Below are positions 11,543 through 32,000 of a stretch of DNA of 32,000 nt, in pieces; the first letter of the stretch is position 1, and every line of letters starts with the position of its first letter. Source of the stretch: Polynucleobacter sp. MWH-Aus1W21. GTDB taxonomy: Bacteria; Pseudomonadota; Gammaproteobacteria; Burkholderiales; Burkholderiaceae. The notes under the pieces were generated by a model. That model did no database searches, had not been told where the DNA came from, and was given only the letters and a program-made list of their open reading frames with translations. Location: assembly GCF_018687275.1 (NCBI RefSeq), contig NZ_CP061287.1, forward strand, positions 1,880,212 through 1,912,211, in the 5' to 3' direction. The position numbers and the translations under genes are program-made.

Positions 11543-12814
11543 ATGCCTAAAGAAACTGAGCTGCTCACCCTTTTCTTTCAAAGCACCCCCACCACTGAAA
11601 AATCCCCTCAGCTCAAATACCTAGAAAACCTAGCCACTGGCAAGCTAGTACATATGAGGGATGGCAACATCACTCTTTATAAGCGTGAACGAAGCAAACA
11701 GTGGCAAATGCGCTTTAGGCTATTTGATAAGAAGTGGCACAGAGTCAGCACTGGCTACGAAGATCTCGAATACGCCAAGAAGAAAGCTGGCGACATATAC
11801 GATAGAGCCCGCTTTATGGAAGAGCTGGGATTACCGCCGCTTAATAAACGCTTTGATTCAGCCGCAGAAGCAACTAAGGTAGAGCTACAAAGCGACCTGG
11901 ATAACGGGGTGGGTAAAAAGATCTATGTAGATTACATATCAGTAATCGACAACTATCTAATCCCGTTCTTTGGTAAGAAGCACCTGACTAGCATCAGCCA
12001 TCAAGATATTGCGGAATATGAAGTTTGGCGTAGCGAGAAGATGAAACGCAAACTCATGCAATCCACAATGATGACTCACTTCTCCGCTTACAACAGAGTA
12101 TTTGATTTAGCAATTAAAAGGGGTTGGCTCAGCGATAAGCATCCAGTTCCAAGGCTGGGCACTAAGGGCGAAAAGAGTAAGCCAAGACCTGCTTTCACAA
12201 GAAAGGAAATTGACTACTTATTAGAGTTTCTAAAAACATGGAGTGAAGGAGGCAAAACCGAGGAAGCGCATAACGGAAGACTACTTCTAAGAGATTACAT
12301 AGAAGTACTCCTAGCTACAGGAATGCGTCATGGCACAGAAGCATTCAATATTCAATGGCGACACTTAGAGTGGCATACAGACAAGAGCATTAGATACCTA
12401 CGAATATGGGTAAGTGGAAAAACGGGCCCACGCTGGCTTATAGCAAGGCATGAGGCAGTTCCAGTAATAGAGCGCCTAAAACAACGCTTTAAGGAATGGG
12501 ATCATTTAACGCTTGATCAATTACTGGAAGAAAAGCGTGAAGAATTCTTATGGCGCCATCCCAATGGTGAACGCCCATATGACTTTGTTAGTAGTTTTAA
12601 ATGGCTGATGAAAGACTCAGGGCTATTGCTTTCTACAACTGGTGCTAAGCGCACTTTGTACAGCTTTAGACACACCTACGCTACGTTTAGCTTAGTTGAA
12701 TGGGGCATGGATATTCACACGCTAGCAAAGCAAATGGGCACGTCTGTACAAATGCTAGAACGCTTTTATAGCAAGCTCACAGCCACATTAGCTGCGGAGA
12801 AGTTGGCGGGTTAA
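11543..12814 (+). CDS. Tyrosine-type site-specific integrase (Int-1)
   Basis: 423 aa. Catalytic signature: LLATGMRHGTEA (Arg), FRHTYAT (His-x-x-Arg), ERFYSK (Tyr). The N-terminus has an arm-binding-like beta region, ITLYKRERSKQWQMRFRL. It is a paralogue of 19130..20401. Confidence 0.9.
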   Translation: MPKETELLTLFFQSTPTTEKSPQLKYLENLATGKLVHMRDGNITLYKRERSKQWQMRFRLFDKKWHRVSTGYEDLEYAKKKAGDIYDRARFMEELGLPPLNKRFDSAAEATKVELQSDLDNGVGKKIYVDYISVIDNYLIPFFGKKHLTSISHQDIAEYEVWRSEKMKRKLMQSTMMTHFSAYNRVFDLAIKRGWLSDKHPVPRLGTKGEKSKPRPAFTRKEIDYLLEFLKTWSEGGKTEEAHNGRLLLRDYIEVLLATGMRHGTEAFNIQWRHLEWHTDKSIRYLRIWVSGKTGPRWLIARHEAVPVIERLKQRFKEWDHLTLDQLLEEKREEFLWRHPNGERPYDFVSSFKWLMKDSGLLLSTTGAKRTLYSFRHTYATFSLVEWGMDIHTLAKQMGTSVQMLERFYSKLTATLAAEKLAG

Positions 12815-15337: not shown

Positions 15338-15904
15338 ATGTCACAAGCTAGAGTTTTAAATCCACAAGAACTACGCAGAGTTTTAGATCACGTCGCTACA
15401 CGTAGGCACAGCGCACGTAATCGCGCTATGTTGCTACTTACACACTACGCGGGTATGCGAGTAGGTGAAGTTGCCGCACTACGTATAAACGACGTTTTAA
15501 ACAGCGACAACACAATTAAGGATGAAGTACGCTTAATGCCCGAGCAAACCAAGGGAAAGCATGCCCGTACTGTTTACTTAAATGAACGTATGCGCAAGGA
15601 AATTAGCCAGTATTTGCGAGTATTACGCATTAGAGATGCCAGCAAGCCTTTGTTCTACACACAGAAACAAGCAGGTTTCTCAGCTAACTCCCTAGCCCAG
15701 TACTTCTTTTACCTATATCGCAACGTAGGCTTAGATGGTGCGAGTAGTCATAGCGGAAGACGTAGCTTTCTAACTGGCCTTGCCAATAAAGGTACAGCTA
15801 TCCATATATTGAAGAGCCTAGCTGGACATAGAAACATCAGTACTACTGCTAGCTATCTATATTCAAGCCCAACACAGCTTAAAGCCGCTGTGGAGCTTGT
15901 TTAA
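15338..15904 (+). CDS. Small catalytic-domain-only tyrosine recombinase (FimB/FimE-sized)
   Basis: 188 aa. It carries AGMRVGEV (Arg), KGKHARTVYL (Lys hairpin), SSHSGRRSF (His-x-x-Arg), LAGHRNISTT (His) and ASYLY (Tyr). It has no N-terminal core-binding domain. GGGAGA RBS is present. Confidence 0.85.
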   Translation: MSQARVLNPQELRRVLDHVATRRHSARNRAMLLLTHYAGMRVGEVAALRINDVLNSDNTIKDEVRLMPEQTKGKHARTVYLNERMRKEISQYLRVLRIRDASKPLFYTQKQAGFSANSLAQYFFYLYRNVGLDGASSHSGRRSFLTGLANKGTAIHILKSLAGHRNISTTASYLYSSPTQLKAAVELV

Positions 15905-18030: not shown

Positions 18031-18693
18031 ATGAATAAGGAGAACCAAAATGCACCTCAAAATGTTTTTGACATCCACTACAGCAATCCTGAAAGTCGAT
18101 TACGAATCGAAGATATTGTCACAAATATCGAAGAGATACCTTCAAGCGGCAAATCAGGATTACTTCTTTACGGAGTCTATGGGACAGGAAAAACCACTCT
18201 CGCGAACTTGCTACCTGACGCAATCGAAAAAGGTAAAGCTGGCGTAGGCTTAAATAGCCCAGAAACCTTTATTGGCTGTCAGCAAGGATTCAATGGGCCA
18301 CAGGTAATGACGCTTATAGGCAATATCTTAAACGTCATGTCCTTTAACTCTAGCGGGCTTCACTACATCATCCTTGATGAAGTCGATAACTTAACCAAGT
18401 TAGCTCAGCAGAGTTTGAAATCAGCTATGAATACCCATAGGGCAGTTTTTATTCTGACAACCAACAACATATCTGAGCTTGATAAAGGTCTAAAAGATAG
18501 ATGCGTATTGATTGAAATGAATGCGGGCGCTCCTGAGGAGTATTTGCCATTAGCAAAAGAAATTGCCCAAAATAAAAATGTCTTTTTAAACGACGAAGTT
18601 TTATTAGAGGCTATTTCATTGGCAAATGGGTCATTTAGAAATCTTAATCATGGCCTCAAGCGGTTAGCTAGGCGGAAAGGAGTAGCGATATGA
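18031..18693 (+). CDS. Small AAA+ ATPase, clamp-loader (RFC/DnaX)-like
   Basis: 220 aa. Walker A is LLLYGVYGTGKTTLA, Walker B is HYIILDEVDNL and sensor-1 is FILTTNN. AAGGAA RBS is present. Confidence 0.85.
   Translation: MNKENQNAPQNVFDIHYSNPESRLRIEDIVTNIEEIPSSGKSGLLLYGVYGTGKTTLANLLPDAIEKGKAGVGLNSPETFIGCQQGFNGPQVMTLIGNILNVMSFNSSGLHYIILDEVDNLTKLAQQSLKSAMNTHRAVFILTTNNISELDKGLKDRCVLIEMNAGAPEEYLPLAKEIAQNKNVFLNDEVLLEAISLANGSFRNLNHGLKRLARRKGVAI
18580..18594 (+). repeat. Palindrome copy 5, degenerate (GTCTTTTTAAACGAC, 14/15), intragenic
   Basis: One mismatch at position 4. It lies in the AAA+ gene in codon phase 0 (VFLND). Confidence 0.7.
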
Positions 18694-19104: not shown

Positions 19105-19131
19105 TAAGCCCACTTTTTAGTGGGCTTTTTT
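19105..19131 (+). terminator. Rho-independent terminator of the 17187-19097 operon
   Basis: AAGCCCAC-TTTTTAG-TGGGCTT followed by TTTT. It lies 8 nt after the stop at 19097. Confidence 0.65.
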
Positions 19132-20401
19132 ACGCCAATTGCTCAGCCGCCATAGTGGGAGTCAGTTTTGAATAGTGCCTCTCAATCATGGCGGCACTAT
19201 TTCCCATTTGCTTAGCCAGCGTGTGAATATCCGTCTTATTCTCTAGTAGCTCTAATGTTGCGTAAGTATGTCGCAATGAGTACAAGGTACGCATTTGCCC
19301 ATCTTGACTCTTAGCTAGCCCACTGTCTCGCATGAGCTTCTTAAATGTCCCATCTATACGCAATGGCTGATGTCCGTCCGCCATTACAAATATCTTTTGA
19401 GGAGCACGAGATTCAAATAATCTATCAAATGGAATGTCATATACGGCCTTTTGACGACTGTGTAAACGCTTGAGAACATCAATCGCTCTATGCTTAGCAA
19501 TTAACCAACGCCCACCAGTCTTGCCATCTACCCATATACGCAAGTACTTTTTACCATTATTGGTATGCCATTCAATGTTATTCCAGCAAATATTTAATGC
19601 TTCAGTTCCATGCCGCATTCCAGTTAATAGAAGCATCTCAACGTAATCTCGCACTAATGGGCGAATCTCGCGCTCAATCTCTAAACGGCCCTCTTTAGCC
19701 CATTGCTCCATATAAGCAAGTAACTTATCAATCTCTTCACGACTAAATGCTGGGCGAGTTTTACCTTTGTGCCCTCGTGAAGTTAATTTTGGTATTGCTA
19801 CACGCTCACTAATCCAGCCTTTATTGACTGCTGTTTGCTGTAGCTTTGTCCAAGCACTAGAAAAGTTCATAAGGGTACTGGCTTTAGGCACTAAGCGCAT
19901 TTGTCTATTTCGCCAAATCTCAAACTCATGAACGTCTGTATAAGTTATTTCTTCTAACCGCTTGTCCTGAAAGTAGGGCAGGAAGTATTTCTCAATACAA
20001 GTGATATAGCTTAGATAAACACTCTTTCCTATACCTTCGCCCAAATCACGTCGCATTTCATAAAGAGTGGTGTGCGCTATTTCTGCGAACGTCGGAGCTT
20101 TTTGCGCAAGTCCTAAGCGCTGGCGAAATCTGGCTTCATCGTATAAGTCGCAGGCAACTCTGACGGCATGTTCAATTGATGCTTGCTTGGTTGAAACTCT
20201 ATCCCATGTGCTGTCATGTCGTTTAAAACGACATTGCCAGAGTGGGCTATTTGGCCTGCGGAAGATAACCACTTCACCGTCACGTAAAAGCAGCGATTGG
20301 GGTTCTGCGAAATGAAGCGTTGATAACTTGGGCTGATGATACTGAGGTGATGAGGGTAGAACTTCTAGATTTGTAAGCTTGGTGACTACGTCCTTAGACA
20401 T
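19130..20401 (-). CDS. Tyrosine-type site-specific integrase (Int-2), paralogue of Int-1 in inverted orientation
   Basis: 423 aa. It carries LLTGMRHGTEA, LRHTYAT and ERHYSK. It is collinear with Int-1 along its whole length (for example YLRIWV.GKTG.RWLIA.H). Palindrome copy 6 lies in codons 57-62 (CRFKRH). Confidence 0.9.
   Translation of the reverse strand: MSKDVVTKLTNLEVLPSSPQYHQPKLSTLHFAEPQSLLLRDGEVVIFRRPNSPLWQCRFKRHDSTWDRVSTKQASIEHAVRVACDLYDEARFRQRLGLAQKAPTFAEIAHTTLYEMRRDLGEGIGKSVYLSYITCIEKYFLPYFQDKRLEEITYTDVHEFEIWRNRQMRLVPKASTLMNFSSAWTKLQQTAVNKGWISERVAIPKLTSRGHKGKTRPAFSREEIDKLLAYMEQWAKEGRLEIEREIRPLVRDYVEMLLLTGMRHGTEALNICWNNIEWHTNNGKKYLRIWVDGKTGGRWLIAKHRAIDVLKRLHSRQKAVYDIPFDRLFESRAPQKIFVMADGHQPLRIDGTFKKLMRDSGLAKSQDGQMRTLYSLRHTYATLELLENKTDIHTLAKQMGNSAAMIERHYSKLTPTMAAEQLA
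20218..20232 (-). repeat. Palindrome copy 6 in opposite orientation (GTCGTTTAAAACGAC on +), inside Int-2
   Basis: Perfect 15-mer. The flanks extend the palindrome to 19 bp (ATGTCGTTTAAAACGACAT). Confidence 0.9.
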
Positions 20402-20910: not shown

Positions 20911-20932
20911 AAAACCACCCGAAGGTGGTTTT
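20911..20932 (-). terminator. Hairpin terminator (bidirectional in appearance) at the distal end of the GC-rich operon
   Basis: AAAACCACC-CGAA-GGTGGTTTT. On the minus strand it is followed by CTTTTAG. Confidence 0.5.
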
Positions 20933-21206: not shown

Positions 21207-22361
21207 CTATGGTTCCATATCGAAATCGGGCTCAACCTCTCCAACTTCAACGTCGTACTCGCCACCGGCCAATTCAATTGATGGATCAAGTTCATCAACT
21301 GCCGCATGCGCAAGATCGCCACGCAAGGTGATGAACACATCCACTTCCATCTCATGATCGCGTGAGACCTCTAGAGAGCCAAAATTAAGCTCTTCATGGT
21401 CGATGGTGTCGTATATAAAGAATTCAACATTCACGTCCACAGAAACCTGAACTGTTGCCCTGACCTCGATGATGCAAATGGTAGGGTCATGTTCCACCAA
21501 CCATGTACCGATTCCAGCTAGGTCCACCGAGTGAGCGAGGTAGTGCGCTTGATCCACCTCTGCCTCAACACGATGACAAAACCCCGTCCAGACATCATCT
21601 GCATTCCAATATGCACCGGCTACATGGTTTTCAACTGCGGCCTGCACCAATGTAGAAAGACTGCTGGCGGTGCTTCCAAGCTCCGCGCTGACTTTCGCGG
21701 TCACGCCCGCTGCCACCGGATTGGTGGACTTGAACAGCGCAGCGAATTCATCCAAGGATTTCACACAGTAGAGCCAATCACTGTGCTTGGCGAAATCTGC
21801 CCAACCGCCGTCCCGTGAGATCAAGATGCCTTGCTTTTGGGTTGCCTTGGCATGGTTTTCCAGCGTCAGGAGCGCGGCAGCATCGGGAAATTCGGACTTC
21901 TTTCTGGCTTCAAATGGTGCCGCTTCTTGGAAATAGCGGTCAAACATCTGTCGCGCCAAATCTGGCCCAGCAATTGGTAAGACACCCCCACCTAAGCTTG
22001 CCACAAAGGCCTTGAACTCTCTGGAAAAATTGCGCGAGGTAACAGATTCGGAATCAAGCGCTTTGATTTGTTCAGTGACAGGGGTGAAATTCAGACCTGA
22101 TAGGCGTTGCAGTTTTGCAATTGCCGCATTCAACTCTTTGGCGACCTTGGAAACCGGCTCCATTCGATGGGTGTGGACCTCCCGCTCAACAATTTCTGTT
22201 TGCTGGATGGTCAGCCAAGCCGGTCTCTGCAGCGGCAATGCACGTAACGCACCGGCGGAAAATTTGTACGCATGGCTCTGAATTACGTCCGTATCGATCG
22301 AGAAGAAACCAACGCTCTTTTCTTCCAACAATGCTTGCGCGCTTGGCAATCCATTTGGCAT
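21207..22361 (-). CDS. PIN-like (DUF4935-type) domain protein with an acidic C-terminal domain
   Basis: 384 aa. The N-terminal half has the acidic-residue pattern of PIN-like nucleases (FFSIDTDVI..., TEIVEREV, KSEFPDAAALL, ILISRDGGW). The family call is from memory. The C-terminal ~170 aa are unassigned. Confidence 0.6.
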   Translation of the reverse strand: MPNGLPSAQALLEEKSVGFFSIDTDVIQSHAYKFSAGALRALPLQRPAWLTIQQTEIVEREVHTHRMEPVSKVAKELNAAIAKLQRLSGLNFTPVTEQIKALDSESVTSRNFSREFKAFVASLGGGVLPIAGPDLARQMFDRYFQEAAPFEARKKSEFPDAAALLTLENHAKATQKQGILISRDGGWADFAKHSDWLYCVKSLDEFAALFKSTNPVAAGVTAKVSAELGSTASSLSTLVQAAVENHVAGAYWNADDVWTGFCHRVEAEVDQAHYLAHSVDLAGIGTWLVEHDPTICIIEVRATVQVSVDVNVEFFIYDTIDHEELNFGSLEVSRDHEMEVDVFITLRGDLAHAAVDELDPSIELAGGEYDVEVGEVEPDFDMEP

Positions 22362-22388
22362 ATGGCCTCTTTATTACAAGTAGTTGAA

Positions 22389-22601
22389 CTATTCCTGTTT
22401 CTTCCGAAGCATAGTCGCCAACCCAAGACCAATCCCAAACTCAATCGCACTAACTACAGCGTATGAAATTCCGAAAGACGCCCCAATCAAGGCCGCGACA
22501 CCCAGCCCAATCAAGCTGGCGGTACGGTCTCCCTTTGAAAACCATCCAGTGGCCGCACCCGCACCAACGTACAGAACGACATATTTCATACTTATGTACA
22601 T
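22389..22601 (-). CDS. Small Gly-zipper membrane peptide
   Basis: I prefer the ATG at 22601 (MYISMKYVVLYVGAGAATGW...), which has AAGGAA 7 nt upstream. It has two glycine-rich hydrophobic segments (GLGVAALIGASFG, GIGLGLA). Confidence 0.55.
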   Translation of the reverse strand: MYISMKYVVLYVGAGAATGWFSKGDRTASLIGLGVAALIGASFGISYAVVSAIEFGIGLGLATMLRKKQE

Positions 22602-22629
22602 AGAAAGTTCCTTTTCTCGCCAGTTATCT

Positions 22630-23709
22630 TTAACGCTTCCTTGTTGCCCATAGACGCCCACCTTCTATAGACAGTCTGAACTTTTGCTGAGTGTCAACTT
22701 CGCCTAGCCAAACGCCATCGACATCATTTTTGAGAGGCACTGAAGATGCATGATCAAAAACATTTTCATCCGGAGCAAATCTCATGACATTCAATGCCCC
22801 CGTGAATCCATCCAAAACAACAGTCCCAAATTCCCAGGGACAATTGCTCTTCATGCAGCCATTCATCACAAGAAATCTTCCGTTATGAACATGCGAAGAT
22901 CCTGGGCCGCTCATTGCAGTTCTGAATGCTCGAAATCGCTCTGGCTTGATCTTCTGAACCACCGATGCTCGGACCTGCTCGTCACCTAGGACGGTATCCG
23001 GATGCTCTCCGACGAAGCGTAGGAATTTTTTGTCGAAACGAACATCAACGTAACCGTCTTGCTTTACAAATATCCGCGTCGATGGCAACAAATCTCCCAA
23101 ATCGTTCTCAGTTCCGTCGTAAAAATTAATCACAGACGATCTACTAAGGCGTTGCCCATCAAAAGCAAATCCGTATTTTGTGATCTTGTTCTTCGGGCCA
23201 TAGAAGCTGGTGCCTACGCGAGTCACACGAATGCCGGAATCTGCCAAAAACACTATGTAATGATCATTCCACGTACTACACATCGTGCCACCGCAATTCG
23301 TAGTGACGATCGCTAGTTTTGCGTTCTTTTCATCTGGGTATGCAGCTCGGATGTGTACTATCCCATCGCAAGCCCCACTGATGTACTGCAAAGACCCAGA
23401 ATTTCCATTGCGAACTTCGAGTCGCTTGTACTCACATTCCTCTCGAACAGGCTGAGTGTATGACTGTCCAGTAACTTTCCCCTCAGCGACCTGGATGAAT
23501 TGACCGTTGGAGAACCTCACCTTATCCAATACGGTGTATGGTTGACTTTCATCCCACATGAATTCCGAATTTGGTCCACCATTCGGTTGCGCATGTGCTG
23601 ACGCGACAAATCCGAGAAGAAGGAACGCCACTGGCAAGCCCCATACCTTCTTCATCAAGAAGAAGGCACCAATCAGTCGCACTTCAAATTTTCTAATCTT
23701 CCAATTCAT
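22630..23709 (-). CDS. Secreted protein of unknown function
   Basis: The ORF track starts at 23823, which overlaps the SNase gene by 113 nt. An ATG at 23709 lies 1 nt after the SNase stop. An ATG at 23652 gives a clean signal peptide, MKKVWGLPVAFLLLGFVASAHA|QP. The mature part contains several Cys and no known motif. Confidence 0.7.
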   Translation of the reverse strand: MNWKIRKFEVRLIGAFFLMKKVWGLPVAFLLLGFVASAHAQPNGGPNSEFMWDESQPYTVLDKVRFSNGQFIQVAEGKVTGQSYTQPVREECEYKRLEVRNGNSGSLQYISGACDGIVHIRAAYPDEKNAKLAIVTTNCGGTMCSTWNDHYIVFLADSGIRVTRVGTSFYGPKNKITKYGFAFDGQRLSRSSVINFYDGTENDLGDLLPSTRIFVKQDGYVDVRFDKKFLRFVGEHPDTVLGDEQVRASVVQKIKPERFRAFRTAMSGPGSSHVHNGRFLVMNGCMKSNCPWEFGTVVLDGFTGALNVMRFAPDENVFDHASSVPLKNDVDGVWLGEVDTQQKFRLSIEGGRLWATRKR

Positions 23710-23710
23710 A

Positions 23711-24226
23711 TCAATCGCCACCTCGCCCTTGATGCCTAAATTCCCATGGGGCGACTGGAGTGGGCTCACTCCAAAGCCCAATTTTGAGCTGCCTCGCCTG
23801 ATACTCGGCATCAGCATACTCACGCCTCAGACTCTCAGATTGATCATTCGAGTAACGCTTGTAGTGCCAGGCCATTCCGGCTCGAATCTGTTCGAGGCAA
23901 ACATCAGTACCATTAAAAATGACCCGACCAAGGAAACGACCATACCTGTCTTTTTTATTTGACTCGATATTCACTGTCTTCCCGAACACCTGGTCAGAAA
24001 GGCTTTTCTTAGAGACCGATCCAAATGGCTGAGACTTTTCCGGTGCGTCAATCCCTGCGAGCCTCACCTTTAGGCGGTCATGGTTGTCAACGAGAACGGT
24101 TATGGTGTCACCATCCGATACACCAACAACACGACCGACGATATCTGCCGCCGTAGCAGATAAAGAACTCCAAAGGAGTGCAATGCCGCAAAGAGCCAGA
24201 CAGACTGAGTGGGCAGAAATCGGCAT
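23711..24226 (-). CDS. Secreted staphylococcal-nuclease (SNase/thermonuclease) family nuclease
   Basis: 171 aa with a signal peptide ending SATA|AD. It has the SNase core: GVSDGDTITVL...VRLAGIDAPEKSQPFG...DRYGRFLGRV...EQIRAGMAWHYKRY...A.....GLWS. Confidence 0.9.
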   Translation of the reverse strand: MPISAHSVCLALCGIALLWSSLSATAADIVGRVVGVSDGDTITVLVDNHDRLKVRLAGIDAPEKSQPFGSVSKKSLSDQVFGKTVNIESNKKDRYGRFLGRVIFNGTDVCLEQIRAGMAWHYKRYSNDQSESLRREYADAEYQARQLKIGLWSEPTPVAPWEFRHQGRGGD

Positions 24227-24229
24227 GAC

Positions 24230-25456
24230 TTAAGGTTTGATGACTGCGAGAACATCTATGCGAGAAAGCTCCTTCTCACACCACTGTTGAACCTTAAGGT
24301 TTGAAGTGCGCCGCCCCATCTCAGCATACTGAATACTCTCACCCAGATTTCCAATTTTCCTTAAGTGGCCTGCCAACATACACGCAGATGTATCTGAACC
24401 AGCCTTGGCGCGCTCGCGCAGAAAATCACTGAATTCACTGTCACTCGATGGCAGTCGCCCCTTTGAAAACACCCATTCCTTGAACGGCACAGAATCGTAT
24501 CGATCCAACTCGGGACTCAAATAATCATAGTAGGCAATCAACACCATCGCTCTATCTGCTGTTTTCGGCGCATCCTTCCACTCAGCGTATTTGAAAAATG
24601 TCACCTGAAGCAGGTTATATAACGCGTAAACAACGCCCCTCGCTGCTGCCTTGTCGAATAACTCAACTGCCTTTTCTGGATTTTTCGGAGTGCCAAATCC
24701 ATCCAAATAAAAAACCCCCAGATTGTTCAATCCAACACTTGAATCCACATCAATAGCTAGCGACGCATACTCAAACAACCGTTGCTTTGTTACTCTCTTT
24801 GCTATTTCCAAATATTCGGTCCCGGCCCAAGCAAAATTGATCTTGCAGTAGATGTCGCCAACGGCAAAGCATTTCTCATACAACGGCGCGGCCCGCACAG
24901 GCTCGTAGAGTGGAGACTTTGGGTTCATGTAAGACGCCGCCTGCGTCCCCAGTGGGGCATCTGGCAATCTGAAATACTCCTCACACCTTTTAACTGCCAA
25001 CTCTTTATTGAACAAAAGGTGATTGGGGTCCTTGTAGATCTCACAGAGTGCCGCGAGTGCAGCCTTTCGATTTTTATCGTCTCCACTTGAAACAAGGGTT
25101 TCCAGCCTAGACGTCCACAATGAGGCTTGAGGCTTGCTTGTCTTTATTCCTTCTTTCCCCGTTCCGAAATGCATGGCCAGAAGTTGAATCGATGGAACGT
25201 CACCTTTTTGAGCAAGTGGAATCAGAATTTCTGGAGCATCCCCTCCTCGCAGATTACGCATTAGCATCCTCGCGAGCGAAAACTTATCCCGTTCATCCAG
25301 CTGTGTTGCAACAGAGCTCGCATTGCTCAAAACGTAGTCACGCCCATTCTTTTCAAGAATCTCTCGCAGCGTAGCTGCCGAAGCATCAAGACCAACAAGC
25401 ATTCCGTTTAACAACAAAGTTAGGGCAACAAGCGCTCGAATTTTTTTCACTTTCAA
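24230..25456 (-). CDS. Periplasmic Sel1-like repeat (SLR/TPR-type) protein
   Basis: 408 aa with signal peptide MKVKKIRALVALTLLLNGMLVGLDASA. It has the Sel1 signature GLNNLGVFYLDGFGTPKNPEKAVELFDKAAARGVVYALYNL plus further helical repeats. Confidence 0.8.
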   Translation of the reverse strand: MKVKKIRALVALTLLLNGMLVGLDASAATLREILEKNGRDYVLSNASSVATQLDERDKFSLARMLMRNLRGGDAPEILIPLAQKGDVPSIQLLAMHFGTGKEGIKTSKPQASLWTSRLETLVSSGDDKNRKAALAALCEIYKDPNHLLFNKELAVKRCEEYFRLPDAPLGTQAASYMNPKSPLYEPVRAAPLYEKCFAVGDIYCKINFAWAGTEYLEIAKRVTKQRLFEYASLAIDVDSSVGLNNLGVFYLDGFGTPKNPEKAVELFDKAAARGVVYALYNLLQVTFFKYAEWKDAPKTADRAMVLIAYYDYLSPELDRYDSVPFKEWVFSKGRLPSSDSEFSDFLRERAKAGSDTSACMLAGHLRKIGNLGESIQYAEMGRRTSNLKVQQWCEKELSRIDVLAVIKP

Positions 25457-25513
25457 AACCCCTTATCTTCATTGCATTGGGTAACGACCACCACATTGAC
25501 TGACCATCAAAGC

Positions 25514-27196
25514 TCAGCCCTTGAAATAGTCACTCAGCTTGTCAACGCCTTTTTTGAAAGCCGCCCGGATAACATGCTCTATTAGATGTATGTTCCATTG
25601 ATCTTTGTATGAGCCAGAACCATACGTTTTTTTATCGCTTTTAGAGCCCACGACGAATTCACCATTGGCAGTCCAAACGTGAACATCGCTCCAAGAAAGC
25701 CGTACCTTTTCGTTTGCTCCGAGAAATTTATGCCTCACAAGAGTCACATATCCATCTTCAACAACGAAGTCTCCAAAGTGCAATGACTTTCCGGCCTCTA
25801 ATGCCTCCCCCATCTCAATGATGAGTCGGACGCAAACTGCGCGCCACATCGCAGCCAGAAACCCTGAATACGTAGATTCTTTGCGAAGACTAATTGTTGT
25901 TGACCCAGAGCGTGTGGCAAAAGCGATTTCGTAGTCCGTACCAGTAGGAATTCCATTGACAGAGTGACGAACGGCCCCCCAACGCACAGCAGTGACTGAT
26001 TCAAGTGGGTATCGCTTCTCTTTCCACTCGATTCCATTTTCAGAAATGGCCAGGGTGTCTTTAAAAACAACGCCAACTTCAGCAGAAAACTTTATTGATC
26101 GTGCCCACTCAGCATCTCGTGACTTAGCCTTCTGCTCAGATTCAGCTCGTTCGGATTTGATATCCGACAGCGCTTTAGCGTCTTGCTCAACACGGTCTGA
26201 AAACTCAGGCAACTCTGAAAATATTTCTCCAAGCAAATGAGTCAATCGAGTCGAAAGGTTTATTTTGTCGTGCTCATTGAACAACTCAATTGCAAGGCTC
26301 CTTATTGCGTAAGCCATTTTTCGACTGGCTTCATGCTCAATTCCACGGGCCTTAGTACTTAGTTGAATTGGTTGGGCGAACCGGTCCCAATTTTTAGCGA
26401 CACGCTCCAGTCTGTCTATTGCCAAAGCTGTTGCCGACTCCCCATTGGGAACGGCCTTGCGAACAGCTTCGATCAGTTTGGTTACGTTGTCTGCCTCTTT
26501 CTCTAAGACGCCCTGCACCTCAACTGCATAGCCATCAACCAATTCATCTATCAACTCAGGCGCGTGATCTTCACCACTGTTCGTAGCGCCATCAACGCAA
26601 TCAGTGATGGCGATCAGTAGAGCTTCAGGCGGCAACCTGTTCAGGGCATCCTTGATGGCAGAACGAAAGTAGCGTTTTCGCTCAGCTAATTCAGTCTCTA
26701 TTTGCTCAACAGACTTAACCTCAGGAAATCCGGAAATAGAACGATCTTCATTGATGTCACGAATTACCTCATCAACATCAACCTCTTCAACAAGCCTTGC
26801 CAACTCCTGGATAAATTCAGAGAGATCTTTCGGAGCATGTGCCCCATCTACCGCCTCAAAAGCAGACGCCAATAAATTGCAGTGAGCTAGCGTCGGCAGT
26901 CCTGTTTCGTTTCGCACGGCCATTGGATCAAGCTGCAAACCGTCCAACAACTGTTTGGCACGTCTAGGTGAAACACCCGGGAGCCAGGCCATCTCTACAC
27001 TCAGCCGATTCCTTGGATTTGTTAGATCACTTCTTGCCTTTTGACATTCATCAGGGCTAATCTCGAGAGACTTCTGCTCTGCTTGATCGGAAATCTTTCG
27101 CCTATCGTCTCTACTCGTAACATCAAGCACCATAAATGGGCTGACATGCAGGGTGCTCTTACCCTCACCGTATTTGAAGCGAGCTGCAGTTGTCAT
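25514..27196 (-). CDS. J-like domain protein (HPD replaced by SPD) with helical middle and beta-rich C-terminal region
   Basis: 560 aa. Residues ~19-75 (SPFMVLDVTSRDDRRKISDQAEQKSLEISPD...DLTNPRNRL) follow the J-domain pattern F/Y.VLGV ... HPD ... L.D...R. The spacing from the conserved Leu to the H position matches E. coli DnaJ, but Ser replaces His. Confidence 0.7.
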   Translation of the reverse strand: MTTAARFKYGEGKSTLHVSPFMVLDVTSRDDRRKISDQAEQKSLEISPDECQKARSDLTNPRNRLSVEMAWLPGVSPRRAKQLLDGLQLDPMAVRNETGLPTLAHCNLLASAFEAVDGAHAPKDLSEFIQELARLVEEVDVDEVIRDINEDRSISGFPEVKSVEQIETELAERKRYFRSAIKDALNRLPPEALLIAITDCVDGATNSGEDHAPELIDELVDGYAVEVQGVLEKEADNVTKLIEAVRKAVPNGESATALAIDRLERVAKNWDRFAQPIQLSTKARGIEHEASRKMAYAIRSLAIELFNEHDKINLSTRLTHLLGEIFSELPEFSDRVEQDAKALSDIKSERAESEQKAKSRDAEWARSIKFSAEVGVVFKDTLAISENGIEWKEKRYPLESVTAVRWGAVRHSVNGIPTGTDYEIAFATRSGSTTISLRKESTYSGFLAAMWRAVCVRLIIEMGEALEAGKSLHFGDFVVEDGYVTLVRHKFLGANEKVRLSWSDVHVWTANGEFVVGSKSDKKTYGSGSYKDQWNIHLIEHVIRAAFKKGVDKLSDYFKG

Positions 27197-27293
27197 GCCT
27201 TCCCCTTGTCTTGTATGTTTTTGTTTCTGGATGATCTAGCTTCGACCATTTCACATAAAGTGACCATCAACGAAGTCCAAGAATTTTTCAAGC

Positions 27294-28634
27294 TCATCTC
27301 AGCTGCCTAATTTGTCTCGACAAACAACTGTTATAAGCCGCTGGACCATTTAGATATTTATCAGAGGAACACGCCGCCTCAACGGACTGTCTTTGCGTGT
27401 AGTTCAAATTTGAGAGATCAGGCTTGCTGGACTGTCGGCTCAACATACTGAGTTGATTGGATAAGCATCGGTTGTAAGCCGCAGGACCATTCAGATACTT
27501 GTCGCTGGAGCATGCTGCTTCAATTGATTCACGTTCAGGACTGGAAAGCGAGTCCAAGGATGGGCGCCGGTTGTTGGAATTAAGAGCACTTAGCTGCCTT
27601 GTTAGGCACCGGTTGTATGAGGCCGGGCCGTTCAGGTACTTTTCGTTGGAACATGCCGCCTCTATCGACTCTTGCTCCGCCGAGGCCAGCCCACTTAAAT
27701 CCGGTCTTCTAGGGGCTTTGCGAAGTGCCGCCACCTGTCGCTCACGACAAGCTCGATATGCCGCCGGACCATTCAAATACTTATCAGTGGAGCAGGCAGC
27801 TTCAATTGACTCTTCCTCGGGTTGACTGAGTTGGGAAGTATCTGTCTCCGTCACTACTGCAGGACTTTCTTGTCTCAGTTGTGGCGGCGTGCTCGCCACC
27901 GGAGACGCAACACGCGGACGGACTGTAGAGGAAGAAAAAATTTTTCGACCTTCAGCTTCATACTCAGTCCGATATCTCTCTACTTCACTGCGCGCACTTT
28001 CTAGTGATCCGCTTCTATATCTGAAACTACTGCAGCGACTGTTGTAATCAGCAACAAGTGAATTAAAACGATTCACATCCGAATCGTTGTACGGATTCAG
28101 CGCCTCTTTGGCCGCGTCCAATCGAATGCTTTCAGCGCTGCAATACCTTATTTGAGGTTGCGACAGCACCAATCCGGTACCGACAGGCGGCGTTTCCTCT
28201 GATGGCTTTGTCGGAACTTGCACATCGGATGTTGGAGGCTGCCAAGTTGGTGAGTCGACTTTTGCAGATGCGCTGTTAGTTGATGTTGAATATGCAGGAG
28301 GATATTCAGGTGACTTTTTTCCCGCCGACGAGGCCAGCCATATCAACCCAACAACCACGGCAATACCTATAAGCCATTTCCCTTGGAATCCACCCTCGCT
28401 TGACTTAGGCGGGTCTTGGTAGATTGCTCTTGGTTGCGGTTGCGGTTGCGGTTGCGGTTGCGGCTCAGTTTTTTTGGCCGCATCCTCGACTGGCTGCGAC
28501 GCACCTCTAATCGGCTCAGGTTCTACGTCACGCTTTTCAATGGAGGGTGCATCGCCAACATCAGAAACCATAGACGAAAGACCGGCAAAGCCTTTTGCCT
28601 CATCCTTTGGTGTTTTGTCCAAACCACTACTCAC
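27294..28634 (-). CDS. Single-pass membrane protein with (PQ)n tract and four C-terminal Cys-pair repeats
   Basis: 446 aa. GTG start with GGGGGA RBS. It has one TM segment (WLIGIAVVVGLIWLASSAG), a P/S/T-rich linker, and then 3.7 copies of a 47-aa unit, ESIEAACS..KYLNGPAAY..CL..Q. Confidence 0.85.
   Translation of the reverse strand: MSSGLDKTPKDEAKGFAGLSSMVSDVGDAPSIEKRDVEPEPIRGASQPVEDAAKKTEPQPQPQPQPQPRAIYQDPPKSSEGGFQGKWLIGIAVVVGLIWLASSAGKKSPEYPPAYSTSTNSASAKVDSPTWQPPTSDVQVPTKPSEETPPVGTGLVLSQPQIRYCSAESIRLDAAKEALNPYNDSDVNRFNSLVADYNSRCSSFRYRSGSLESARSEVERYRTEYEAEGRKIFSSSTVRPRVASPVASTPPQLRQESPAVVTETDTSQLSQPEEESIEAACSTDKYLNGPAAYRACRERQVAALRKAPRRPDLSGLASAEQESIEAACSNEKYLNGPASYNRCLTRQLSALNSNNRRPSLDSLSSPERESIEAACSSDKYLNGPAAYNRCLSNQLSMLSRQSSKPDLSNLNYTQRQSVEAACSSDKYLNGPAAYNSCLSRQIRQLR
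27297..27818 (-). repeat. Tandem coding repeat, 141-bp unit x about 3.7
   Basis: Derived from the protein periodicity: three 47-aa units plus a terminal 33-aa partial unit. The units are diverged at many positions but keep both Cys residues and KYLNGPA. Confidence 0.8.
28432..28461 (-). repeat. Hexanucleotide microsatellite (GGTTGC)5, encoding (PQ)n
   Basis: Five perfect GGTTGC units were counted on the + strand. They are in frame within the 446-aa protein (PQPQPQPQPQ). Confidence 0.9.
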
Positions 28635-28643
28635 ACATCCCCC

Positions 28644-30086
28644 TTAGATGAAGCCGATCTTGTTATGGGATCCGCCCTCTCTTTGCCTAGCTGGAGTTGC
28701 TTGCATTGCAGCCTGCAGGCTCTCTTGATCTAATTTGTCTTTGCCTGCGCGCGCAGCAAGACGTGCTCCTTCACGAACGATGAAAGTCACATCAGATAGC
28801 GGACGACCGGCCATTTCACGAGCAAATGGCAACGGGTCAACCGAATCATCTTTCGGCAACGTTGATAGCAATTTTTCAAGAAGAGAGAGGATCTCCTCCT
28901 CACTTGCAAAGTCGACTTTGATCACATGATCAAAACGTCCACGACGAAGAATTGCAGGATCAATCATTTCGATTCGATTGGTCATCGCAATGATCAACAC
29001 ATCGTTCTTTACTGCCTCTGGAATTCGCCGCAGAAACTCAGCAACTTCCTCGACTCGATGGTGACCACTTCCCATCTCGCGATCAGCGAGAAAGGCCTCC
29101 ATTTCATCAATAACAAGAACTGATGGCGCATTCTCAATTGCCTTGTCAAATACTTCAGCCACCTTTTTGCTGGTTTCATGTATGTAGGGACTGGCAACAC
29201 TCGATGCATCAATCTGAAAACTAGGCCAACCTAAGAAGTCGACCAAGCGTTCAACTGCAAAAGTTTTCCCGCAACCTGGGGGGCCATGCAGAACTACAGC
29301 TGAAGGAAAGTCGATTCCGAGAGCCTTGTATCTGTCTCTGTTCTGAACAATGTCAACAATGTGCTCATTAAAAAACGCTGCCAGATCAGGCCGACCAGCG
29401 AGCTCAAACACCTTTGGCTTATCTTTCACTTTGCCGTTTGAAGATGATGGCTTGCTTACCAGTTCAGCAGGCCCCTCTTGATTTCCAACAGGAGCGCTCC
29501 GACGCCTTCTCTCTGGGACGACCTCAGACACTTCATATCCCGCAGCTTGAACTACATCTTTTAAGTGACTTGCTCCTAGCCAACTTAGGGTTTGATGCAA
29601 GCGCCTGAAGGATTTTGCAGATACGGGTGCACCACCAGTAAGCCAATAGCCCAATACAACGTCATCGTCTGTTCGAGAGGAAATGCTGTACGTAGGAAGA
29701 AGGCGGCTAATCTTTTCAACGTAAATAGCATCTTGCAGAGGTGAATCTGGGTCGATGCTCCTCGTCGCTTTGAAAGCAAGGGCGAAAGAGAGTGCTTCTG
29801 CTTTCGAGTCGGGTGAGTGCCCCTCTGTTACAGGACACAAAACTTGAGTAGCACCGCAGGAAATCGAACGAAGTTGTCGATCGCCATAACTGAAAACATC
29901 AAATTGCCCATCCTCTGCGATTCCGGCAACGACCCAGTGCTTGACTAGATCATCAAGAGCAATTAATGCGCGCCCTGCACCAGGGGTTTCCAATATTTGC
30001 CAGTTCACCCCTTCAAATAGGGCTACCCTTGTTCTTGCACCATCGGGCAATTTGAAGCCAATTGGAAGCCACGAATCGATCGCCAT
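28644..30086 (-). CDS. Classical-clade AAA+ ATPase (Cdc48/FtsH-like module) with an unassigned ~250-aa N-terminal domain
   Basis: 480 aa. Walker A is VVLHGPPGCGKTF and Walker B is VLVIDEMEAF. IIAMTNRIEMIDPAILRRGRFDHVIKV carries sensor-1 plus the second region of homology. Its ATG lies 2 nt after the Hsp70 stop. Confidence 0.9.
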   Translation of the reverse strand: MAIDSWLPIGFKLPDGARTRVALFEGVNWQILETPGAGRALIALDDLVKHWVVAGIAEDGQFDVFSYGDRQLRSISCGATQVLCPVTEGHSPDSKAEALSFALAFKATRSIDPDSPLQDAIYVEKISRLLPTYSISSRTDDDVVLGYWLTGGAPVSAKSFRRLHQTLSWLGASHLKDVVQAAGYEVSEVVPERRRRSAPVGNQEGPAELVSKPSSSNGKVKDKPKVFELAGRPDLAAFFNEHIVDIVQNRDRYKALGIDFPSAVVLHGPPGCGKTFAVERLVDFLGWPSFQIDASSVASPYIHETSKKVAEVFDKAIENAPSVLVIDEMEAFLADREMGSGHHRVEEVAEFLRRIPEAVKNDVLIIAMTNRIEMIDPAILRRGRFDHVIKVDFASEEEILSLLEKLLSTLPKDDSVDPLPFAREMAGRPLSDVTFIVREGARLAARAGKDKLDQESLQAAMQATPARQREGGSHNKIGFI

Positions 30087-30088
30087 GG

Positions 30089-32000
30089 TTAACTCCGCAC
30101 AATGTTGGCACCGGCCATCATCTCGTCGTCACCCCCAGATCCGATTCGAATGGAATCGAGCTGAGCCACAACTGCACGCAGCTTGTCGATGTCGTTGGCC
30201 TTTAGTGCTTCAGCGCCAACGCTGGAAAGTTGAGCATGCTCTCGTGCATCCGGGAACAGGTACGAGTCCTTTGAGAGCCATTTGAAACGGTCAATGACGA
30301 ACCAATCTTGCCGCCACAGAATCATGAAATTCTTGCCACGCAGATCGTCGAGGTGCGCCTCAAAATCGCCACTGTTATTGTCAATAGAGCGTTGAGCTGT
30401 CTTCACCAAATTGTCAAACGAGTTCGCTTCCGTAGGTCGCGCATGCTCTCGGACCAAACGATCAAAGAAATCTAATGCTTTGTCGAGTTCAAGTTGGCGT
30501 ATTTCTTTAAGGTGATCTTTTCGTGCAAGCGCTAGAAGACGCTTTGCTTCCTGGACGTTGTCCATTGCCTGCTTCGCAGTCTCTGGGTCAGACTCGCCGG
30601 ATTTGATCGACTCCGCCTGTGCAAGCTTTTCTCTAGCCTGCTGAAGGCGGGGATCATCAATCTTCGACTCCATTTCATCGAGCCGCTGTATGGCATGTTC
30701 AGATTGCTCGGCCACGAGTTTTGATGCCTGCGTGTAATCAATCTGACCATCTTGTCGTGAGTAGAAATTTCTACCACTGTGGAATGATCCACCGATAGAA
30801 GGAACCGAGACTTCCATCATGATGTTGCCCGAGTCCAAGATTTCATACTCACAAATCATCTCAGCACCAGCGGCAATAACTCCATCATCGAAATCGGATC
30901 CTTTGATTTCAAACATGCCAATGAATCTGTTGTCATTGACAGGGTCGGAAATTTCCCCCTCCCAAAGCTTGAACTTAATTGACCCTGCACTCCCTGCACG
31001 CAGGGATTCTTCAGTCTTAAAAACCTTTTTTCCCTTCTTCGGCAGCTGATCTCCCTCGCGCACCAGGTAGTCCAACACTAAACGCCCTCCCAGCTTGTCT
31101 CGGGCTTCCACGCCGATGGAGTGCGACGCTGGAATTGCATCGATGCTTGCCGCAGTTCTTGTGATGACGATCTTGTCGTCCTTAAGGCTAACCGGCCCAC
31201 CTTTCGAGTCAAAAACGAAGACCTTGAACGTGTTTTCGCCAGGCTTTCCTAGATTTAACTCAACCGCCGCACCGTCTTTAAGCGCAAGACGACCTGAGGA
31301 CCACCCGGAATCCAAACTGTCAATCTGGAACTCAGTTCCAGCTGCTGCACTACCCCCAACCTTCACGACAATCTTGGCTTTCGAATCGGGTGTGCGTGCA
31401 ATAAAGTTAAATGCAATATCTAATGCGCCACCGGCACTCAAAGCCCCACGCGAACTCTTTCGCCCCCTGCTATCCGATTGCCAGTCGATTGACTCCGCAA
31501 ATACTGAAGCACCTTCGGCAACTGCTGTCATCGGATTCACATCGGTAGATGGTGCAATACCCATCTCGAAAGCGACTTTGTCCCTAAGGGGCTTGTATTG
31601 AGTTGGGCCTCCGACGAAGACTATTCTTTCTACATCGTGTGCACTTAAACCTGCCTTTTCCAGAGTTTCTCTGGCAGATTGGATGGCCTCATCCACCTTT
31701 GGTGCTATCAGTGCGTCAAGCTGACTTCGACTAAAAGGGATGTCGACATAAATCTCCGTACCATCCTGATCCGAGACACCCAGATCGGATTCGGTCAAAC
31801 TGATGACAGACTCTTCTTTGGCAGAGAGTTCGATTTTTGCCTTCTCTGCCGCCCACAAGCACATTCTTAACAGTGCCTTGTACTTGCTGTTGGAAGTGAA
31901 ATCTTCTGGAAGATTGAATTGAGATAAGAGCCAAGGTTTGACAACGTTATCAAGAATGGAGCGGTCAAAGTCTGTTCCACCGCACATGGCCACGCCGCCG
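30089..32000 (-). CDS. Atypical Hsp70-family protein (N-terminus outside the window)
   Basis: The frame continues past 32000 (...GGVAMCGGTDFD, compare DnaK DLGGGTFD). AAEKAKIELS and VFVGGPTQYKPLRDKV...VNPMTAVAEGASVFA match the Hsp70 nucleotide-binding domain. A beta-rich SBD-like region and a helical tail follow. The 634-aa track ORF begins at an internal Met. Confidence 0.9.
   Translation of the reverse strand, partial: GGVAMCGGTDFDRSILDNVVKPWLLSQFNLPEDFTSNSKYKALLRMCLWAAEKAKIELSAKEESVISLTESDLGVSDQDGTEIYVDIPFSRSQLDALIAPKVDEAIQSARETLEKAGLSAHDVERIVFVGGPTQYKPLRDKVAFEMGIAPSTDVNPMTAVAEGASVFAESIDWQSDSRGRKSSRGALSAGGALDIAFNFIARTPDSKAKIVVKVGGSAAAGTEFQIDSLDSGWSSGRLALKDGAAVELNLGKPGENTFKVFVFDSKGGPVSLKDDKIVITRTAASIDAIPASHSIGVEARDKLGGRLVLDYLVREGDQLPKKGKKVFKTEESLRAGSAGSIKFKLWEGEISDPVNDNRFIGMFEIKGSDFDDGVIAAGAEMICEYEILDSGNIMMEVSVPSIGGSFHSGRNFYSRQDGQIDYTQASKLVAEQSEHAIQRLDEMESKIDDPRLQQAREKLAQAESIKSGESDPETAKQAMDNVQEAKRLLALARKDHLKEIRQLELDKALDFFDRLVREHARPTEANSFDNLVKTAQRSIDNNSGDFEAHLDDLRGKNFMILWRQDWFVIDRFKWLSKDSYLFPDAREHAQLSSVGAEALKANDIDKLRAVVAQLDSIRIGSGGDDEMMAGANIVRS

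Follow-up and report, generated by a model that had tools for sequence, protein, structure and literature searches.

A horizontally mobile cassette built around an Hsp70 protein and an AAA+ ATPase extends, with its downstream two-thirds, into the 32,000-nucleotide stretch of Polynucleobacter sp. MWH-Aus1W21 DNA analyzed here, which is referred to below as the window. The core of the cassette consists of five genes, which encode a GrpE-like protein, the Hsp70, the AAA+ ATPase, a single-pass membrane protein with a short N-terminal tag, and a J-like protein. As judged from the sequences, the cassette could well specify a dedicated chaperone/unfoldase machine whose targets are membrane proteins that bear the tag and are linked to the cell wall; its role would probably be one of conflict (anti-phage). 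We favor this reading tentatively.

Relatives of the window locus were collected in a scan of one genome per species, which yielded 80 loci, and each window protein was compared by tblastn. The same five-gene core recurs in about 90 related loci from many phyla. The genes follow a fixed, collinear order of GrpE-like p124, Hsp70, AAA+ ATPase, membrane protein and J-like protein. Gene order was counted in the 42 loci that extend 7 kb or more to either side. All five core genes are present in 38 of these loci and stand in the same order in 36. Collinear copies of the AAA+ gene are found in about 60 loci. Since the core is collinear across phyla, chance clustering of its genes is ruled out. A preliminary description, made from the window sequence, had grouped the Hsp70, the AAA+ ATPase and the J-like protein within a nine-gene unit. 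The grouping holds beyond this genome, as the 38 loci with a full core attest. The nine-gene unit does not hold, because only four of the nine window genes belong to the conserved core, and the fifth core gene, encoding the GrpE-like protein, lies upstream and outside the window.

The loci come from Beta-, Gamma-, Alpha- and Deltaproteobacteria, Nitrospira, Gemmatimonadales, Poribacteria, Ignavibacteria, Methylomirabilia and Actinomycetota bins. The distribution of the cassette is very patchy and the cassette is horizontally transferred. Homologs of the J-like protein number at least 1,918 at 90% clustering. In the full scan, its family comprises at least 638 clusters at 50% identity (E ≤ 1e-30), for which there is no Pfam model. 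None of the phage records encodes the J-like protein.

A reduced version of the cassette is found in Poribacteria. This chromosomal, three-gene version is composed of a GrpE-like gene, an Hsp70 gene encoding 851–854 residues, and one or two J-like genes (L069:4856-11686; L089:9654-14876). It is flanked by the dUTPase gene on one side and thyA/folA on the other and contains neither the AAA+ ATPase nor the tagged membrane protein. No fully covered locus has the AAA+ ATPase without the tagged protein, or the reverse. Because the two are absent together in Poribacteria and never occur one without the other in the covered loci, the AAA+ ATPase and the tagged protein appear to form one sub-module, and the Hsp70, its nucleotide exchange factor (NEF) and the J-like adaptor the other.

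In the window, the block at positions 21207-32000 holds nine open reading frames (ORFs) on the minus strand, with start codons as chosen in the preliminary description. All gene and domain positions given below for this block refer to that strand. The four core genes encode the Hsp70 (30089-32000), the AAA+ ATPase of 480 residues (28644-30086), the tagged single-pass membrane protein of 446 residues (27294-28634), and the J-like adaptor of 560 residues (25514-27196). The order and coordinates of the nine ORFs were recovered as described earlier, and the intergenic gaps of 2, 9, 97, 57, 3, 1, 28 and 27 nucleotides were reproduced exactly. From this spacing alone, we infer that the nine ORFs may be co-transcribed. 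The upstream part of the cassette was taken from the metagenome contigs L001–L004, which are 98-99% identical to the window locus. These contigs encode the complete 830-residue Hsp70, preceded by an overlapping 124-residue ORF.

The domain calls of the preliminary description stand in part. Pfam matches support HSP70 (3.6e-22), AAA (3.2e-30), Sel1 (5e-09), SNase (5e-25) and PIN_12 (5e-19). The J-like, transmembrane (TM)/Cys-repeat, secreted-unknown and Gly-rich products have zero family matches in Pfam, NCBIfam and PADLOC, so that the calls for the J-like protein and the Gly-rich peptide are left without a family.

The best-conserved part of the membrane protein is a short, predicted cytoplasmic peptide at the N-terminus, borne on a long disordered tether. 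All of its orthologs begin with a nearly invariant segment, [KR]GFAGLSSLVSD[VI]. The GFAGLSSLVSD tag is found one to three times per locus and across phyla, is always N-terminal, and always resides on membrane proteins. The orthologs are sequentially composed of the tag, a low-complexity linker with a median length of 66 residues between the tag and the membrane, one TM helix, a conserved two-Cys domain, and variable periplasmic modules. Among 66 family members, the periplasmic domains include PG_binding_1 in 26, PG_binding_2 in 3, SLT in 2 and SH3_3 in 1. On the basis of the hydrophobic helix and the peptidoglycan-binding domains, we infer an N-in/C-out topology.

The window copy carries the tag as GFAGLSSMVSD (28560-28592), which would be cytoplasmic. 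It is followed by a (PQ)n linker (28432-28463), encoded by the perfect tandem repeat (GGTTGC)x5.3, a TM helix (28320-28376) and the conserved juxtamembrane periplasmic domain with two cysteines (27993-28172). In place of a peptidoglycan-binding domain, it possesses four Cys-pair repeats of the form ESIEAACSxxKYLNGPAAYxxC (about 27297-27818). The earlier view of a single-pass TM/Cys-repeat protein is thus borne out by the one hydrophobic helix and four repeats read from the sequence. In near-identical contigs, the length of the membrane protein is 452, 442 or 446 residues and varies exactly at the (PQ)n stretch. As the length differences fall exactly at this repeat-encoded segment, in-frame slippage of the (GGTTGC) repeat is suggested to vary the length of the tether.

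The Hsp70 gene runs off the window, which contains the C-terminal 636 of 830 residues; the N-terminal 194 residues are encoded beyond it. The fragment is 100% identical to an 830-residue "Hsp70 family protein" of Polynucleobacter sp. MWH-Aus1W21. It contains the C-terminal half of the nucleotide-binding domain (NBD; 31484-31999), the only half covered by the Pfam match, a disordered linker and an extra β-domain (31130-31456), the β-subdomain of the substrate-binding domain (SBD; 30770-31129), and a helical lid with a C-terminal helical domain (30092-30736). A full-length ortholog matches the NBD of DnaK in phmmer with an E-value of 6.8e-51, and its ATPase motifs are intact. They are IGIDLGTTNS, DLGGGTLD and VGGPT, corresponding to the phosphate-1, phosphate-2 and adenosine motifs, respectively.

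The AlphaFold2 model of the window fragment (predicted local distance difference test score, pLDDT, of 70) displays a disordered segment, a β-rich region and a long helical region. In Foldseek, the model aligns with full-length DnaK over 511 columns (E 4e-13) and with lid-less DnaK over 407 columns. In addition, hhalign places the DnaK SBD-β in register with an E-value of 0.05. Only about 170 residues of the query belong to the NBD; therefore, an SBD is present after the extra β-domain, and the Hsp70 is modeled as retaining its SBD. Pfam does not detect an SBD in the Hsp70. The NBD and SBD are not connected by a direct DVLLLD-type join, as the disordered segment and the extra β-domain of about 110 residues lie between them. 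The NCBIfam DnaK score is 87 bits, compared with cut-offs of 648-822. The size of 830 residues, the extra β-domain, and DnaK and HscA NCBIfam scores far under the cut-offs bear out the earlier designation of an atypical Hsp70. Weak Pfam matches of the Hsp70 to DUF7382 and DUF4398 recur.

The product of the first core gene, p124, is about 124 residues long and lacks the long N-terminal coiled coil of GrpE. The Pfam GrpE family (PF01025) is the sole recurring family and is matched by 16 of 42 orthologs, all sub-threshold; the best match has an E-value of 0.0044 and 17 bits, against a cut-off of 25.8 bits. A weak hhalign match to E. coli GrpE (E 0.09) falls in the expected region.

The AAA+ ATPase comprises a novel N-domain of 240 residues (29367-30086) and an AAA module (28647-29366), with the Pfam match at residues 264-392. 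The N-domain profile finds no match among PDB sequences. The motifs read from the AAA module are Walker A GPPGCGKT (29262-29285), pore loop SPYIHE (29175-29192), Walker B VLVIDE (29103-29120) and a second region of homology with RRGRFD (28929-28979). The arginine fingers are present, and the pore loop contains Tyr-Ile. These features indicate a single-ring, classical-clade ATPase with predicted threading-type pore loops. It had previously been called Cdc48-like. The assignment to the classical AAA clade stands, but the protein has a single AAA module, for which the scores of PAN and FtsH equal or exceed that of Cdc48. The NCBIfam models for PAN, FtsH and CDC48 all score far under their cut-offs, with 95 bits versus 803 for CDC48. 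A resemblance to IetA is confined to the generic AAA module (8e-26 in PADLOC; 2.6e-24 for NCBIfam IteA, at 86 bits against a cut-off of 510).

The J-like adaptor is built from a four-helix module lacking the HPD motif (26972-27157), a long helical domain reaching to about residue 368 (26093-26971), and two domains resembling pleckstrin homology (PH) and phosphotyrosine-binding (PTB) domains (25796-26092 and 25517-25795). Its AlphaFold2 model has a pLDDT of 90.5 and displays the four-helix module, the helical domain, and two β-sandwich-plus-helix domains. In local Foldseek alignments, the two C-terminal domains match the ICAP1 PTB domain (4dx9, probability 0.97) and APPL1 BAR-PH. The whole model has no significant global match in the PDB or BFVD.

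The relationship of the N-terminal module to J-domains is suggested by three weak lines of evidence. The hhalign alignment with the J-domain of E. coli DnaJ is in register and places SPD on HPD, although it is weak (E 0.007). The helices are arranged in the model as a short helix followed by helices II, III and IV. A local Foldseek match to a giant-virus DnaJ has a probability of 0.96 but an E-value of 0.73, and is likewise weak. The Pfam DnaJ model does not match the protein, and full-length and N-terminal profiles find nothing meaningful in the PDB. The position of HPD is occupied by SPD, NPD, DHD, DQE, DSD, DYD or DGD across 50 orthologs. Of the earlier designation as an HPD-less J-like protein, the absence of HPD is thus well founded, whereas the J fold is weakly suggested by these three lines, and Pfam and PDB profile searches gave no match.

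Most orthologs of the J-like protein possess an additional N-terminal zinc-ribbon and helical extension of about 110 residues, which is absent in the window lineage. A trace of its deletion is preserved, in that MTTAARFKYGEGKS in the window matches MTKAICFKCGEEKAS in 672-residue orthologs. The 97-nucleotide gap before the J-like gene (27197-27293) is accordingly a scar, left because an internal deletion removed the zinc-ribbon and helical extension. In the closest relatives, a free-standing 105-residue paralog of the extension (p105) is encoded upstream of the cassette (L001:996-1313).

The remaining five ORFs of the window are not part of the core. Four encode exported or membrane add-ons, namely a Sel1-repeat protein (24230-25456), a staphylococcal-type nuclease, SNase (23711-24226), a secreted protein of unknown fold with 359 residues (22630-23709), and a Gly/Ala-rich membrane peptide of 70 residues (22389-22601). 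The signal-peptide-like N-termini previously noted on the Sel1 protein, the SNase and the secreted unknown were confirmed by reading the sequences. In tblastn, the Sel1 gene is found in L001–L005 only and the secreted unknown in L001–L004 only. The Gly-rich peptide shares 72% identity with a 74-residue ORF of L001–L004 and is absent elsewhere. An endoplasmic-reticulum-associated-degradation-like reading, with Cdc48, Hsp70 and a Sel1 repeat as in Hrd3/SEL1L, was ruled out for the family as a whole, as Sel1 is confined to one shallow clade.

The SNase is a recurrent option and not a core part, because in-operon copies of an exported SNase are present at three positions in three lineages: in the window clade, upstream of the GrpE-like gene in L009, and downstream of the J-like gene in L055. 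The last of the nine ORFs encodes a 384-residue protein (21207-22361) with an N-terminal PIN_12 domain and a C-terminus of about 200 residues. PIN_12 is missing from all 85 related loci, even from the 98-99% identical contigs L001–L004, which have other genes at this place. Because the gene is unique to the locus of this strain and sits in the highest-GC kilobase of the window (0.53), it is probably an independent insertion and an unrelated neighbor of the system. These observations do not support the earlier suggestion that the nucleases are effectors gated by the ATPases: PIN_12 is absent from every related locus, and the SNase is optional and has a signal peptide, which puts it beyond direct gating by cytoplasmic ATPases.

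Most loci lack a nuclease and instead contain a downstream module encoding a cytosolic protein (p214), two signal-peptide proteins (p165 and p217), a second tagged membrane protein (p350), an RDD-family protein and a small TM protein (p92). The N-terminus of p214 is always MGFLSNLFGG. The RDD-family protein and the 92-residue TM protein share the N-terminal sequence MAYEDPNAP (L029:14545-15174, L031:15194-15484, and orthologs).

The cassette resides in accessory DNA, in agreement with the preliminary description. In the Aeromonas caviae IncP plasmid pKAM471_1 (L086:1-5279) and in a 257-kb plasmid of Shewanella xiamenensis from hospital wastewater (L088:3933-11545), it is cargo of Tn7-like TnsABCDE elements. 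The two copies share 94% DNA identity and represent an 11-gene version located directly downstream of tnsABCDE. No Tn7-like genes were found among the loci beyond these two copies, indicating that Tn7 is not the general vehicle. In Thiohalobacter, the F-type tra cluster of a conjugative element is interrupted between traU/trbC and trbI/traC by a cassette that encodes two tagged proteins (L090:104-22496). Polaromonas and Vibrio plasmids carry the cassette beside an integrase and a toxin–antitoxin pair, and in Marinomonas its neighbors are helicase genes on one side and transposases on the other. Other copies, including that of the window, are found in integrase islands, and some stand beside BrxR or defense genes.

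Five loci from different subclades, among them a relative with 99% identity to the window locus, have a regulator gene of the BrxR family (winged helix-turn-helix and WYL domains) immediately upstream of the cassette (L002:2-850; L005:3066-3947; L009:1721-2590; L013:2061-2903; L070:2-232). It has been reported that 48% of BrxR homologs adjoin known defense systems, and their other neighbors have been proposed as candidate new systems (PMC9122601). A pooled scan of 150 flanking proteins gave strong matches to a type I methyltransferase, BrxD, SngB, NsnA, reverse transcriptase and WYL, with no single recurrent defense partner. Between the BrxR and GrpE-like genes, the closest relatives encode a DUF4236 protein of 89 residues (L001:723-992) and a protein of 220-253 residues.

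In the window, the block closes an island array that is anchored by a tRNA-Met gene (9916-9992) and contains three tyrosine recombinases. To the left of the island are recA and a TctC gene. The array includes an RNase_T exonuclease with a BRCT domain (10557-11450), the first recombinase (11543-12814; 423 residues), the second recombinase (15338-15904), a small AAA/STAND-like ATPase (18031-18693), and the third recombinase (19130-20401, minus strand; Pfam Phage_integrase; 423 residues), which borders the block and substantiates the integrase-bearing island noted before. The first and last recombinases are both 423 residues long, and the array also contains a DUF6641 protein. In line with the foreign composition attributed to the block, the GC content rises from 0.36-0.48 over 1-21 kb to 0.47-0.53 over 21-32 kb. 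Only one convincing terminator-like hairpin was found. It is located 3′ of the PIN gene (20911-20932) and has a nine-pair stem and T runs on both strands, which is a consensus match only. This palindromic hairpin, AAAACCACCCGAAGGTGGTTTT, is situated between the PIN and recombinase genes, where it could terminate transcription from either side.

Tail peptides are the usual ligands of PH/PTB-like domains, short hydrophobic peptides those of Hsp70 SBDs, and AAA+ rings begin their work at unstructured termini. Because modules of these kinds typically engage such peptides and termini, the cytoplasmic machine may recognize the GFAGLSSLVSD tag as a handle. The tag would be docked by the PH/PTB-like domains of the adaptor or by the SBD of the Hsp70, whereupon the Hsp70 cycle and the AAA+ ring would retain the tagged protein, exert a pull on it or extract it. 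Cytoplasmic remodeling driven by ATP could in this way be coupled to the state of the cell wall or envelope. The other short N-terminal motifs, those of the RDD-family protein, the small TM protein and p214, fit such a tag-recognition logic. The role might be anti-phage or directed against mobile elements, with sensing or execution at the envelope. A conflict role is favored because the cassette is carried as mobile-element cargo, adjoins BrxR genes, and is patchily distributed. A bolder version, which is possible but doubtful, is a new class of immune or conflict system based on the Hsp70 cycle. Peptidoglycan-anchored sensors would show the tag to the machine, a breach or remodeling of the wall during phage entry or lysis or during conjugation would alter how the tagged proteins are engaged or extracted, and membrane-level abortive infection or exclusion would follow, with the exported add-ons being interchangeable.

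Several observations weigh against a machine with a conflict role. The core lacks a conserved enzymatic effector such as a nuclease, protease, NADase or obvious pore-former. The chromosomal three-gene version of Poribacteria, beside thyA and folA, looks more housekeeping than defensive. Tn7-like elements and integrative and conjugative elements also carry non-defense cargo, and the Shewanella copy adjoins lspA, a cation transporter gene and cadR. The defense matches in the flanks are per-family counts without a genomic background and are suggestive. In addition, the GrpE-like and J-like assignments depend on sub-threshold or weak matches, and the Hsp70 model is only moderately confident.

A role in proteostasis or envelope stress is the serious rival to a conflict role, though a rather unlikely one. 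The cassette would then be a mobile stress module comparable to transmissible heat-resistance loci, in which the Hsp70, NEF and co-chaperones, with the AAA+ ATPase as a disaggregase or extractase, maintain or clear envelope proteins during stress and take no part in conflict. Such a module would account for the complete chaperone set plus unfoldase, for accessory genes that almost all encode envelope proteins, for the housekeeping neighbors of the Poribacterial version, and for the wastewater or clinical plasmids on which the Shewanella and Aeromonas copies lie beside metal-resistance genes. However, a general chaperone needs no cis-encoded client with a nearly invariant tag, nor is a J-like module without HPD expected of it. 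The very patchy, horizontally transferred distribution and the recurrence of BrxR regulators and defense genes nearby also argue against a pure stress function. Unlikely as well is a cell-wall scaffold, in which a bitopic peptidoglycan-binding protein attaches by its N-terminal peptide to an ATPase of the actin/Hsp70 fold in the style of FtsA–FtsN, PilM–PilN or MreB–RodZ, for local peptidoglycan remodeling or as an envelope structure for a mobile element. The architecture of the tagged protein, with its short, conserved N-terminal peptide in the cytoplasm, TM helix, low-complexity linker and peptidoglycan domain, does mirror that generally known for FtsN and PilN. The family includes proteins with SLT and PG_binding domains, a weak T2SSM_b-like match is seen for p350, and one copy lies within a tra gene cluster. 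Yet an SBD and a NEF-like partner are hallmarks of a chaperone cycle and not of a filament, such scaffolds do not include an AAA+ unfoldase, and the tra association was seen once only.

Two further readings concern the extent and identity of the locus. A nine-gene system as first described, in which target sensing by the Hsp70, J-like protein and AAA+ ATPase would gate the SNase and PIN nucleases as effectors, is improbable. In its favor, the nine ORFs are spaced as tightly as in a single transcription unit, the sole strong terminator-like hairpin follows the PIN gene, and an SNase stands beside the core in three independent arrangements. These points are opposed by the distribution of the genes, with PIN_12 in 0 of 85 related loci, even those 98-99% identical, and the Sel1, secreted-unknown and Gly-rich genes limited to a single shallow clade. 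As the SNases have signal peptides, their location outside the cytoplasm precludes direct remodeling by cytoplasmic ATPases, and most loci are nuclease-free and contain the other envelope module instead. An ordinary specialized Hsp70 locus of the hscC/djlB/djlC or dnaK type is highly improbable. The NBD is clearly that of an Hsp70, but the protein has 830 residues and an extra β-domain, its scores against every DnaK and HscA model of NCBIfam fall roughly tenfold short of the cut-offs, and no partner with an HPD J-domain is encoded. The locus is patchy, horizontally transferred and on mobile elements. With the Aeromonas copy as the query, it is absent at the megablast level from 5,426 complete E. 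coli genomes.

If the favored reading of a tag-directed machine with a conflict role is correct and the cassette is a true defense or exclusion system, a chaperone-driven, envelope-coupled mechanism would be added to bacterial immunity. If the cassette is not defensive, it would offer a natural model of how Hsp70 and AAA+ proteins are directed to one particular membrane substrate and of how a J-like protein works in the absence of HPD. A 2026 review describes the bacterial Hsp70 derivatives besides DnaK and HscA as largely unexplored "dark matter" (PMC13580251). The cassette gives an unexplored Hsp70 family a testable context, consisting of an exchange factor, an HPD-less adaptor, an AAA+ ATPase and a cis-encoded tagged client or partner. 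The family is large and unannotated, and the tag, the PH/PTB-like domains and the N-domain of the AAA+ ATPase are open to mutagenesis and complex prediction.

The preliminary description had named no known system with this combination of proteins, and the comparison with described systems agrees. In PADLOC-DB v2.0.0, no family is matched at E ≤ 0.01 by any protein of the extended module or by four core products, namely the Hsp70 and the J-like, membrane and GrpE-like proteins. Full-text literature searches found no description of the cassette and yielded only different Hsp70-containing conflict systems, namely CoCoNuT, GTPase-centric systems and bNACHT25–DnaJ, none of which matches. GTPase-centric conflict systems with GAP1-N2 contain HSP70, GrpE and DnaJ-FNIII proteins (Kaur et al. 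2020, PMC7159879). They resemble the cassette in their predicted conflict role and in combining an Hsp70 with GrpE and a DnaJ-fused partner. However, they are found mainly in Actinobacteria and Firmicutes and include TRAFAC GTPases and fibronectin type III (FNIII) proteins, neither of which is encoded here.

Type III CoCoNuTs encode CnuD, with an Hsp70-like NBD and SBD, and some variants include a Cdc48-like (SpoVK) AAA+ ATPase and a glycine-zipper protein (PMC11090510). These predicted defense operons resemble the window locus in pairing an Hsp70-like protein, in some variants, with a Cdc48-like AAA+ ATPase and a glycine-zipper protein. CoCoNuTs differ in possessing McrB-type GTPases, McrC homologs, coiled coils and HEPN RNases; neither an McrB-type NxD GTPase nor McrC (DUF2357) has a Pfam or PADLOC match in the nine window proteins or the extended module. 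The Walker motifs of CnuD are degenerate, whereas the NBD is intact here, and CoCoNuTs have no tagged membrane protein. The ietAS system, which acts against plasmids and phages and consists of the AAA+ ATPase IetA and the protease IetS, is similar in that the AAA module resembles IetA. The similarity is restricted to this module at 86 versus 510 bits, and the locus lacks an IetS-like protease.

HscC with DjlB and DjlC offers another parallel, as a specialized, non-essential Hsp70 with its own co-chaperones, one of them membrane-anchored. HscC proteins are 550-580 residues long (PMC8215388), compared with 830 here, and are not accompanied by an AAA+ ATPase, a NEF or a tagged peptidoglycan-binding partner. 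DjlB and DjlC are genuine J-domain proteins, unlike the J-like partner without HPD. The large size of the Hsp70, its HPD-less partner, and the patchy, mobile distribution confirm that this is not an hscC/djlC-type housekeeping locus.

Partial precedents exist for the proposed engagement of the tag. In FtsA–FtsN, PilM–PilN and MreB–RodZ, an ASKHA-fold ATPase engages a conserved N-terminal cytoplasmic peptide of a bitopic, often peptidoglycan-binding, membrane protein. In Msp1 and Cdc48, a classical AAA+ ring pulls an unstructured cytoplasmic tail of a membrane protein. The relationship to these systems is one of analogy only, as the partners have no detectable homology. Cdc48/p97 also contains tandem D1 and D2 rings and a double-psi-barrel N-domain, in contrast to the one AAA module here.

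A further counterpart is the bacterial bi-chaperone system of DnaK–DnaJ–GrpE with ClpB. Both comprise an Hsp70 with ATPase motifs and an SBD and a hexameric-type AAA+ ATPase with aromatic pore loops, and the small GrpE-like and J-like proteins of the cassette are candidate equivalents of GrpE and DnaJ. By analogy, the two likely share a logic in which the Hsp70 would target and the AAA+ ring would thread the substrate. The components nevertheless differ. Unlike DnaK, the Hsp70 of the cassette has 830 residues, with a β-domain following the NBD and an additional long helical region at the C-terminus. HPD, present in DnaJ, is missing from the J-like module, and the NEF is about 124 residues long and sub-threshold as a GrpE. 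ClpB/Hsp100 proteins contain two rings and a coiled-coil M-domain to which Hsp70 docks, whereas the AAA+ ATPase here has a single classical-clade ring and no Clp family matches. Finally, the cassette encodes a dedicated client in cis and is carried on mobile elements, which distinguishes it from DnaK and ClpB. We take it to be an Hsp70/AAA+ machine with an apparently undescribed, dedicated and envelope-linked architecture.

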